Part shown: in pieces, positions 24,432-27,478 of the stretch
How the letters are laid out: every line of letters starts with the position of its first letter
Position numbering within the stretch: position 1 is the stretch's first letter
Notes under the pieces: model-generated
The model's input: the letters and a program-made list of their open reading frames with translations, nothing else
Database searches by the model: none
Told to the model about the DNA's origin: nothing
DNA from: an uncultured Gammaproteobacteria bacterium
GTDB lineage: Bacteria; Pseudomonadota; Gammaproteobacteria; JAGOUU01
Assembly: GCA_964353115.1 (NCBI GenBank)
Contig: CAYGUI010000001.1
Location: 13,417 to 77,416 of the forward strand
DNA length: 64,000 nucleotides
Reading direction: 5' to 3'
Made by a program: the position numbers and the translations under genes

Positions 24432-24953
24432 ATGAGTATTATGAAAAAAATTATTAGTATTTTTTTAGTTTTATTTAGCAGTAATCTTATTGCTGGACCA
24501 TCATATTTATTATTCAAAGATTCAGAATATTTTCCTAAAAATGGAATTACGATTGCCTATACAGATTGTGGAAGTTCTGCGCATTGTATAATTACTCGTA
24601 TTAATCGAAGTGAGCTTCCTGTAAGACTAAAATTTGAAGCTAAATATAGTTATGTTAGTGTTATTTTTAATGATGAAAATAATATTCCTGCAGCTTCAGT
24701 TTGTAATTTATATGCGAAAAATTGGAATACTGGTGTTTTTAATCAAAATTGGCATCATAAATTTTATGCTTATGAATCAACCCAAAGTACTTTAGCGGCT
24801 TGCACTAATGGAGCTTTTACTAATGATTGGTCTGCTTGTTGTGGTGTTTCTTATTTAGATGATAAAAAACCTAATAACTCTTTTACTTTTGAGTTTGGAC
24901 CATATGATTATGATTGGTATTTGTCCCATTCATACGTTTATGGCGAGAATTGA
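24432..24953 (+). CDS. Hypothetical secreted Cys-rich protein
   Basis: Signal peptide MKKIISIFLVLFSSNLIAG, 8 Cys, no recognisable domain. First gene of the block inserted between sdhB and sucA. Confidence 0.4.
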   Translation: MSIMKKIISIFLVLFSSNLIAGPSYLLFKDSEYFPKNGITIAYTDCGSSAHCIITRINRSELPVRLKFEAKYSYVSVIFNDENNIPAASVCNLYAKNWNTGVFNQNWHHKFYAYESTQSTLAACTNGAFTNDWSACCGVSYLDDKKPNNSFTFEFGPYDYDWYLSHSYVYGEN

Positions 24954-25036
24954 GAAAGTTAATAAAAAAATTAAGTCTATTGACTTGATTTTATTGTAAT
25001 TAACATTTTTTCATAATTATTATACTATTATTTCCT

Positions 25037-25065
25037 TTGACTGCGCTTTTTTGATATGGTATAAA
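25037..25065 (+). promoter_or_regulatory. Sigma70-like promoter upstream of the Ser/Pro-rich ORF
   Basis: TTGACT, 17-nt spacer, TGgTATAAA (extended -10); 38 nt upstream of the ATG at 25104. Confidence 0.4.
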
Positions 25066-25103
25066 TTTAGACTGTTAACTTAATATATTTTAGGATAGTA
25101 ATT

Positions 25104-25691
25104 ATGAATGGTCACCCATCTTCACTTTTACCTGCAGATTCTGTTTATTCATTAAGAATTTGCTCAGTTTTGTCGTCTGATGATAATAAATCTGTACCAG
25201 AAGCAGCAGCAGCTGCAGCTGCTACAACTCCAGATTCACCAAAAACTAGTTCTATTCTTAGATCTAGATCTTCATCTATAGGATCTAAATTTAGTTGTCA
25301 AAAAAGTGTTACTTTTGCTGATCCATCTGATTGTGATTCTATAGATGCGCCTCCTAGAGAAAAAATAGACTCGTCAGTATCTCTGCCGCCATCACACCAA
25401 TTATCGCCAATGGGAACACCAGTTTCATCGCGATCAATTGCAATGAGACAAAGTGGTAGAAAAAATTTTGTTTTACAAATACCAGTACCAGAAAGTTGTT
25501 TACAAGCAACTCTTACTCTTATGTTTTCCAGCGAATGTATGGGTTCTACTGTGCCTTTAGAGCGTGTTACTTCAAGACCTGTGACGCCAAGAGATTTATC
25601 TCCCGTTTTTTCGAGTTTTAGAAGGCCAATTTCACCATCACATCCTATTATAGCTAAACCAAAAAAAATAGGGCCTGCACCTACGATCTAA
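25104..25691 (+). CDS. Ser/Pro-rich low-complexity protein (eukaryotic-like disordered protein, effector candidate)
   Basis: 195 aa, ~35% Ser+Pro, multiple S/T-P motifs (TPDSPK, RPVTPRDLSPV, RPISPS), poly-Ala tract, no TM segment and no domain. Confidence 0.45.
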   Translation: MNGHPSSLLPADSVYSLRICSVLSSDDNKSVPEAAAAAAATTPDSPKTSSILRSRSSSIGSKFSCQKSVTFADPSDCDSIDAPPREKIDSSVSLPPSHQLSPMGTPVSSRSIAMRQSGRKNFVLQIPVPESCLQATLTLMFSSECMGSTVPLERVTSRPVTPRDLSPVFSSFRRPISPSHPIIAKPKKIGPAPTI

Positions 25692-26345
25692 TTAAAGAAT
25701 AGACTGCCCAGTTTTCTTCCAATCAGCAAGAAACATATCAATTCCCTTATCTGTTAGTGGGTGTTTAAATAATTCATGCACAATTTTTGGCGGAATAGTA
25801 GCAACATCTGCGCCGATTAATGCAGCACGTTTTACATGTTCAACGTCACGAATAGAGGCTACTAAAATTTCAGTGTCAAAACCATAATTAAAATAAACCT
25901 CGGCGATTTCTTCAATCAGTTTCATTCCATCTTCGCCTATATCATCTAAGCGACCAACAAAAGGAGATATAAATGTTGCGCCAGCTTTAGCTGCAAGTAG
26001 AGCTTGAGCTGCAGAAAAGCATAAAGTTACATTTACCATAATTCCTTTTTCACGTAATGCACGGCAAGTTTTAAGTCCATCTGGAGTTAAAGGTACTTTA
26101 ATTACTATATTGTCAGCAATTTCGGCTAATTTTAAACCCTCTTGAAGCATGGTTTCATAGTCCAGAGCAGTTGTTTCAACACTTATTGGACCATCAATAA
26201 ATTCACAAAGCTCAGCTACAACCTCAGTATATTGACGTCCGCTTTTAGCGATTAGGGAAGGATTGGTCGTTACTCCGTCAACAAAACCTAATTCGGCTAT
26301 TTCTCTGATTTGTGCAACTTCTGCTGTGTCGATAAAAAATTTCAT
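25692..26345 (-). CDS. tal: Transaldolase / fructose-6-phosphate aldolase (short TalC/Fsa type)
   Basis: 217 aa; [10 protein letters not shown]...[10 protein letters not shown]-terminus and catalytic Lys region IVIKVP typical of class-3B transaldolases. Confidence 0.85.
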
Positions 26346-26401
26346 AATTTATGCTATAATTCCGTTGGTTATTTTTTTAAGATCGGGACATTTTAATATT
26401 T

Positions 26402-27478
26402 ATGAGTAATAAATTAAACCATTTTTTTAGCGAATTAAAAAACGTCAAATTGTCTGAAGTTCGTAGCTATATTTCAAAAGAATGTTATGAACGTAGTTTC
26501 TTTAAAATTTACTTTTGGCTATTGATAGATATAGCAGTTTTTTCCTCTGGAATGGCAATGGTTTTTATGTTTAATAATATTTTATTAAAATTGCTTGGAG
26601 GATTTATTGCTGGCCGTGGAACTATGATGCTTTTTGTTTGGGGGCATGATTCAGCGCACGGAGCTTTGTTTAAATCTAAATCAGTTGGATTATTTTGGGG
26701 ACAGCTTACAATGCTACCTTCATTACACAGCTGTAGTTTATGGCAGTTAGGTCATAATAAGGTTCACCATGGATTTACATCCTTTTCACCGATCGATTGG
26801 ATTTGGAAACCGTTACAACCAGAAGAATATTTAGCATTAAGTTCTTGGGGTAGGTTTTGTTATCGCATCGAACGTAATTTTTATACTCACGCTTTTCATT
26901 ATATTAACCAAGTATGGTTAAAAAAAATGATGCTATATAACGGCGCTTTATTAGAAAAAATATATGTATTAGTTTATTTTTTAACGATGTCAGCACTGTG
27001 TTATTTATACGCAGGGGGTGTAATTGGTGTTTTAACTGGAGTTGTTTTGCCAGTAATGATTTTCATGTATGGTATCTCTTTTATAGTTTATGTCCATCAT
27101 ACTCACCCAGATATTCCATTTTTCTTTGATAAATCTTGGAATAAAACTATAGGCATGTTGTATTGCACAACAATAATTAAGGAATCGAGATTTATAAGAT
27201 ATTTATCACATAATATTAAAATTCATACTCCACATCATATTGATCCACGTATTCCATTTTATAATTTACATCGTGCATATTTAGATTTAAAAGTTAAATA
27301 TGGAAAATACATTCATGAATATGATTTTACTTGGAGCAAGGCAAAAAGCATATTTAGTAAATGTAATGTATATGATATTAAAAATCAAAAGTGGTTATCT
27401 TTTAAAGAATTAATGGCTAATAAAGCTGATTATTTAACTGTATTAAAAGAAACTGAAGAAGTAAAAGTGGTAGCTTAA
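26402..27478 (+). CDS. Membrane fatty-acid desaturase family protein
   Basis: Three histidine boxes HDSAHG, HNKVHH and HTPHH, with 4+ TM helices. Confidence 0.7.
   Translation: MSNKLNHFFSELKNVKLSEVRSYISKECYERSFFKIYFWLLIDIAVFSSGMAMVFMFNNILLKLLGGFIAGRGTMMLFVWGHDSAHGALFKSKSVGLFWGQLTMLPSLHSCSLWQLGHNKVHHGFTSFSPIDWIWKPLQPEEYLALSSWGRFCYRIERNFYTHAFHYINQVWLKKMMLYNGALLEKIYVLVYFLTMSALCYLYAGGVIGVLTGVVLPVMIFMYGISFIVYVHHTHPDIPFFFDKSWNKTIGMLYCTTIIKESRFIRYLSHNIKIHTPHHIDPRIPFYNLHRAYLDLKVKYGKYIHEYDFTWSKAKSIFSKCNVYDIKNQKWLSFKELMANKADYLTVLKETEEVKVVA

Follow-up and report, generated by a model that had tools for sequence, protein, structure and literature searches.

In the 64,000-nucleotide (nt) stretch of an uncultured Gammaproteobacteria bacterium analyzed here (contig CAYGUI010000001.1, positions 13,417 to 77,416; hereafter the window), the tricarboxylic acid (TCA) cycle clusters sdhCDAB and sucABCD lie on the same strand but are separated by 3,064 nt that hold four open reading frames (ORFs): two orphans, ORF1 and ORF2, a short-type transaldolase gene (tal) and a membrane fatty-acid desaturase gene (des). 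We favor, with moderate confidence, the explanation that sdhCDAB-sucABCD underwent a lineage-specific rearrangement in which four genes of native composition came to lie between sdhB and sucA and transcription was re-cut into four units. Under this proposal, the ancestral gammaproteobacterial cluster would have been rearranged in one lineage, dividing what had been a single unit; gene identities, spacings, motifs and the absence of the block from the comparators are observed directly, whereas we infer what the ancestral arrangement was and that resident genes were rearranged instead of being acquired horizontally. The host is a deeply branching, low-GC, probably host-associated gammaproteobacterium.

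The window is densely coded and has a GC content of about 34%. Read along the plus strand, the genes follow in the order ald, gltA, sdhC, sdhD, sdhA, sdhB, the four intervening ORFs, sucA, sucB, sucC and sucD (Table 1). The initial annotation had placed four genes between the sdhB stop and the sucA start, and the ORF coordinates agree exactly with that placement. Their spacing is uneven: ORF1 begins 5 nt past the sdhB stop and is followed by a gap of 150 nt before ORF2; ORF2 and tal are convergent, with stop codons that abut (0 nt between them); tal and des diverge from a 56-nt spacer; and the des stop lies 12 nt ahead of the sucA ATG, with an AAGG within the gap.

Table 1. Genes and candidate regulatory elements at the sdh-suc locus (positions in the window).
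Feature	Position	Strand	Description
gltA	19866-21161	+	upstream of sdhC
sdhB	23716-24426	+	last gene of sdhCDAB; 63-73% identity to SdhB of 80 genomes
ORF1	24432-24953	+	173-aa orphan, 6 Cys, signal-peptide-like N-terminus
Candidate terminator of sdhCDAB-ORF1	24967-24992	+	AT-rich 11-bp hairpin and U-rich tract
ORF2 promoter (motif)	25037-25065	+	TTGACT 25037-25042, 17 nt, TATAAA 25060-25065, TG at -15/-14
ORF2	25104-25691	+	195-aa Ser/Pro-rich orphan, predicted disorder
tal terminator-like hairpin and U8 tract	25661-25709	-	centered on the abutting ORF2/tal stops, within the last codons of both
tal	25692-26345	-	short-type transaldolase, ~24 kDa; TIGR00875
Extended -10 (candidate), TGCTATAAT	26352-26360	+	in the tal-des spacer, 42 nt upstream of the des ATG
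des	26402-27478	+	membrane fatty-acid desaturase family, DesA-like; PF00487
sucA	27491-30271	+	from the ORF list and tblastn against comparator loci
sucB	30318-31517	+	downstream of sucA
sucC	31543-32709	+	downstream of sucA
sucD	32711-33580	+	downstream of sucA

Twelve proteins of the window were mapped by tblastn onto 160 comparator loci, 80 of them centered on SdhB homologues from species-representative genomes and 80 on SucA homologues from metagenomes. The two genes sdhB and sucA are adjacent in 74 loci, separated by 3-550 nt (median 220), so that the direct succession of sdhB and sucA, previously taken as the norm, holds for loci of the gammaproteobacterial type. In 18 loci gltA lies between them, and in one they occupy opposite strands; around 29 sucA loci, at least the 3 kb upstream lack sdhB, and three sdhB loci are not followed by sucA. 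No match to ORF1, ORF2, tal or des was found in any of the 160 loci; the cluster that the four genes split is unbroken in comparators of the gammaproteobacterial type. The interruption is unique among the retrieved loci, although it is not uncommon among bacteria for sdh and suc to be separated. One comparator (L149) with a 2.2-kb separation not caused by gltA was considered as a parallel and set aside as an unrelated case, since it comes from a high-GC organism and has a permease gene interposed. A literature search on the sdh-suc organization of Legionella returned nothing relevant.

Compared with the sdhCDAB-sucABCD operon of E. coli and other enterobacteria, the window preserves the order and orientation of all eight genes on one strand, but the spacer of 3-550 nt typical of the 74 comparators gives way to 3.06 kb that hold four genes, of which one is convergent, and the first gene after the proposed suc promoter is that of an unrelated desaturase. 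The betaproteobacterial-type arrangement, sdhCDAB-(sdhE)-gltA-sucAB, likewise has sdhB and sucA co-oriented and 1.6-5.8 kb apart (the 18 loci mentioned above); there, however, the interposed gene is gltA, itself a TCA-cycle gene, whereas tal, des and the two orphans have no role in that cycle.

The position of gltA also differs from that of the E. coli operon, in which this gene is divergent from sdhC. In the window (19866-21205 region) it precedes sdhC in the same orientation, the two genes being 43 nt apart. All 59 comparators that have gltA upstream of sdhC carry it divergently, and the co-oriented arrangement was found in none of 76. The orientation of gltA marks a second rearrangement within this TCA locus.

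The description of tal as a short-type transaldolase is borne out by two family models, TIGR00875 (293.8 bits over the full length, curated cut-off 245.95) and PF00923 (221.7 bits, cut-off 27). The protein aligns end to end with 1vpx of T. maritima (267 bits), 3r8r of B. subtilis (244 bits) and 3s0c of T. acidophilum (235 bits), while fructose-6-phosphate aldolase (FSA) of E. coli yields only about 110 bits. It has SVE and one 11-residue segment in common with 3s0c, and its lysine segment (IKVP/IKIP) in common with both 3s0c and 1vpx. The transaldolase active site contains Glu and Phe at the positions where FSA has Gln and Tyr, in addition to the Schiff-base Lys. With these residue roles, the alignments place tal with the transaldolase-type rather than the FSA-type active site, and from its sequence we take it to be a genuine short-type transaldolase. 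Relative to other short-type transaldolases the protein is ordinary, being unusual only in its location and in its convergence with ORF2 without a spacer.

The des product matches PF00487 with 89.5 bits (cut-off 29.7) over residues 64-311 and contains three His boxes, HDSAH (82), HNKVHH (118) and HTPHH (275), together with two hydrophobic blocks at approximately residues 36-70 and 182-233; its earlier identification as a membrane fatty-acid desaturase is well founded on these features. The equivalog models for the Delta5 DesA and Delta10 DesB enzymes (NF052548 and NF052549) give 53.9 and 13.3 bits, below the cut-off of 500, and for this reason only a family-level assignment is justified. The best non-self homologues are 44-52% identical. 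Those that are named carry the label "fatty acid desaturase" and come from Legionella bononiensis, Legionella sp. and metagenome-assembled genomes (MAGs) of Legionellaceae and Francisellaceae; some are labelled omega-6/Delta12 desaturase by JGI. These DesA-like enzymes of Legionella and related MAGs, annotated as Delta12 or omega-6 desaturases, resemble des in having the PF00487 domain and the three His boxes. In five other lineages the des homologues occupy five different neighborhoods, none of them beside sucA, tal or sdh. The closest homologue, 52% identical, occurs in three loci of one metagenomic lineage (L082, 7467-8811; L083, 5533-6877; L084, 1322-2666), where it directly follows a gene for a 55-aa rubredoxin, a neighborhood suggesting that enzymes of this desaturase subfamily may receive electrons from a donor of the rubredoxin type. 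In two further loci (L165 and L167), a des homologue lies near the genes for a Crp/Fnr-family regulator and coproporphyrinogen oxidase.

ORF1 has Lys5-Lys6 at its N-terminus, followed by one hydrophobic segment within residues 7-25 and then by 'LIA|GP'; hydropathy analysis gave no other hydrophobic segment, and the N-terminus looks like a Sec signal peptide. The protein was originally termed Cys-rich: six cysteines, an even number, are indeed present (positions 46, 52, 91, 124, 136 and 137), but at 3.5% of the residues the label is generous. A search of a collection of 5.8 billion proteins returned only ORF1 itself, as a gene call of the same length. A full HMMER search against 1.84 billion representatives gave one non-self match, P0123, with E = 6e-7 summed over 10 stretches; P0123 is Asn-rich, 908 aa long and built with a 33-aa repeat, and the score was judged to reflect compositional or repeat inflation rather than homology. 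The single-sequence AlphaFold2 model of ORF1 has a predicted local distance difference test (pLDDT) score of 51.0, and Foldseek retrieved no PDB structure with E <= 0.001 for it, TM-scores being at most 0.31. With its start so close to the sdhB stop, ORF1 is probably a fifth sdh cistron, co-transcribed with sdhCDAB.

The Ser/Pro-rich character attributed to ORF2 is evident from its composition, as 39 of its 195 residues are Ser (20%) and 24 are Pro (12%). The protein is predicted to be disordered, with a single-sequence AlphaFold2 pLDDT of 34.7, and its only match in the same 5.8-billion-protein collection is itself, again as a gene call of equal length. For both orphans, no match was obtained in Pfam, NCBIfam, PHROG, PADLOC or the PDB, the lone PDB candidate having E = 0.74. 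The sigma70-like promoter reported ahead of ORF2 is real as a motif: among about 640,000 positions scored across the window with a position weight matrix (PWM) it comes 20th, and an AGGA lies 8 nt upstream of the ORF2 ATG. We estimate the chance of an open frame of 173-195 codons at about 4e-7 per start at a GC content of ~30-38%. On account of these improbable lengths, the host-like GC content at third codon positions (GC3) and the positive in-frame codon log-odds, ORF1 (GC3 0.132, log-odds +0.31) and ORF2 are each probably real genes.

The composition of the block as a whole matches its surroundings: its four genes have GC3 values of 0.13-0.22, against 0.15-0.23 in the neighbors, and positive in-frame codon log-odds. 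No tRNA gene or Rfam element was found in the block, and its borders contain no integrase, insertion sequence (IS) or long flanking repeat, only short repeats at chance level. The regions around the starts of ORF1 (24423-24441, TTAATTTTTATGAGTATTA) and des (26393-26411, TTAATATTTATGAGTAATA) agree at 17 of 19 positions, a similarity discarded as probably due to chance in AT-rich DNA, by our estimate. Des has diverged from its best homologues (about 52%) to much the same extent as SucA has from its own (about 50-55%), which fits a resident gene that moved rather than a recent import. At a distance of 30 kb from the block, two IS3-family copies of 1,180 bp (57177-58356 and 60711-61890) are 100% identical and in direct orientation, which shows that the genome possesses active rearrangement machinery. 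Native composition, the lack of a mobility signature, the housekeeping type of tal and des, the IS copies and the inverted gltA together point to a local shuffling of resident genes accompanied by the gain of two orphans, and not to an island imported recently.

The proposed division of transcription is built on the spacings and on candidate signals at the gene borders. The first unit would comprise sdhCDAB-ORF1 and end at the AT-rich hairpin past ORF1, where the fold of 24940-25080 is weak (z = -1.76; 10 of 200 shuffles as good). ORF2 alone, with its own TTGACT-17-TATAAA promoter, would form the second unit. The third would be tal on the opposite strand, ending at the hairpin and U-tract that span the abutting stops; the minus-strand fold of 25640-25760 reaches -27.4 kcal/mol with z = -0.92 and is suggestive only. 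The fourth, des-sucABCD, would start from TGCTATAAT in the tal-des spacer, making an O2-dependent desaturase the leader gene of the operon for 2-oxoglutarate dehydrogenase and succinyl-CoA synthetase. We infer these four transcript boundaries from motif and fold predictions. The TGNTATAAT sites are infrequent in the window (4 in 64 kb, 8.85 expected), and three of them precede, by 37-54 nt and in the correct orientation, the start codons of des, sucB and leuS.

The initial annotation held that sucABCD needs its own promoter here and pointed to 27380-27490 as the place to look for it. A separate promoter is very probable, because read-through from sdh must pass the hairpin after ORF1 and run antisense through tal; within 27380-27490, however, neither a consensus scan nor the PWM scan found a promoter-like site, and the best candidate is TGCTATAAT, before des. 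Given this absence, the candidate before des and the short des-sucA gap, sucABCD is most likely transcribed as des-sucABCD from the extended -10 element. Having a separate suc promoter does not in itself set the locus apart from the normal state. A further extended -10 element, TGGTATAAT (30264-30272), overlaps the sucA stop 54 nt before the sucB ATG and may act as an internal promoter within the suc operon before sucB.

The alternatives concern both the origin of the block and its expression. It is unlikely, in our assessment, that the block is a horizontally acquired island from which ORF1, as a secreted protein, and ORF2, as a disordered Ser/Pro-rich protein, act on a eukaryotic host. The signal-peptide-like N-terminus of ORF1, the composition, predicted disorder and strong promoter motif of ORF2, and the absence of homologues, which is typical of effectors of intracellular bacteria, would all suit such a role, and the window holds other ORFs without Pfam domains as well as a class-3 lipase-like protein. 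ORF2 also contains three PX[ST]P motifs where 0.72 are expected (p = 0.03), but this is a marginal result for one of several motifs examined, and [ST]P motifs occur about as often as the composition predicts (7 against 6.1 expected, p = 0.41). An island is further opposed by the native GC3 and codon usage and by the lack of tRNA, integrase, IS or flanking repeats at the block, by the housekeeping type of tal and des, by the absence of effector-domain, PHROG, PADLOC or PDB matches for the orphans, and by the lack of secretion-system genes in the annotated parts of the window. The earlier characterization of the block as an insertion of host-interaction cargo is not supported: two of its genes are ordinary metabolic ones, its composition is native throughout, it shows no mobility signature, and its two orphans are without a homologue or recognizable fold. 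A doubtful, though somewhat more credible, proposition is that ORF2 is non-functional, a frame open by chance or in decay, or that it was born de novo very recently, in which case the real content would be three genes and a spacer. Its lack of any homologue but itself and its low pLDDT are compatible with this, and its last ~10 codons overlap the 3' arm and U-tract of the hairpin that resembles a tal terminator at the abutting stops. Moreover, host codon usage is matched better by the in-phase antisense frame (0.36) than by the sense frame (0.22), a situation found for none of the neighboring genes; that antisense frame, however, is broken by stops. A 195-codon frame with an ATG is very improbable by chance, the three-base periodicity is strong (GC content of 0.566 at second and 0.148 at third codon positions), the near-consensus promoter and the AGGA Shine-Dalgarno sequence are both correctly spaced, and the source record also calls a gene of equal length. 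Very little probability is assigned to the idea that ORF2, perhaps together with ORF1, originated recently and only within this lineage, whether as a de novo ORF that arose in the rearrangement spacer and extended into the tal terminator or as a fast-evolving disordered effector that has eukaryote-like PX[ST]P motifs and lies beside core TCA genes with a strong promoter of its own; if true, either case would represent a datable gene birth or effector gain within a core metabolic operon.

With regard to expression, it is improbable that transcripts reading through from the sdhC promoter still account for most sucABCD expression, as they do in E. coli. The tight coupling of ORF1 to sdhB, the common strand of all genes except tal and the failure of a consensus scan to find a GC-rich intrinsic terminator in 24400-27500 would be in keeping with read-through, but such a transcript must cross the hairpin and U-tract past ORF1, then run antisense to the convergent tal for about 650 nt with a hairpin at the ORF2/tal junction, and a well-placed extended -10 element is present upstream of des. 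The proposal of a lineage-specific rearrangement with four transcription units has points against it as well. The comparators are all distant (among the matches listed, SdhB reaches at most 73%, the SucA N-terminus at most 50% and Des at most 52% identity), and consequently the ancestral contiguous state is a reconstruction in which the event or events can be neither dated nor placed in order. An ancient horizontal acquisition followed by compositional amelioration may also account for the block. All promoters and terminators in the model were predicted from motifs or folds, and the hairpins after ORF1 (z = -1.76) and at the ORF2/tal stops (z = -0.92) both lack strong statistical support.

The locus is a lineage-specific variant of a well-known operon architecture, composed of two ordinary enzymes and two orphans, with no evidence of a new system. 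If the transcript model is true, a highly conserved gammaproteobacterial operon has been cut into four units, membrane lipid desaturation would be tied to the expression of the aerobic TCA cycle, and the regulation of sdh and suc would be uncoupled in a lineage without recovered close relatives. The case is useful for the study of operon plasticity in divergent, probably host-associated bacteria.

Several features lie elsewhere in the window. Each of the two IS3-family copies contains an ORF with an rve integrase core and has terminal inverted repeats, TGATCTATCCC...GGGATAGATCA. The copies bracket a gene of the S9 prolyl-oligopeptidase family (58552-60624) in a layout like that of a composite transposon, and directly after the second copy (61921-62014) a 47-nt GC-rich unit with internal hairpin potential occurs twice in tandem, at 96% identity. 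Large ORFs with little or no domain assignment occur among the housekeeping genes: one of 450 aa (13006-14358, minus strand) has no Pfam match, one of 418 aa (52694-53950, plus strand) has none above threshold, one of 548 aa (4847-6493, minus strand) has a weak NADAR match, and one of 506 aa (2063-3583, plus strand) contains a class-3 lipase-like segment. Their presence fits a genome rich in lineage-specific proteins.

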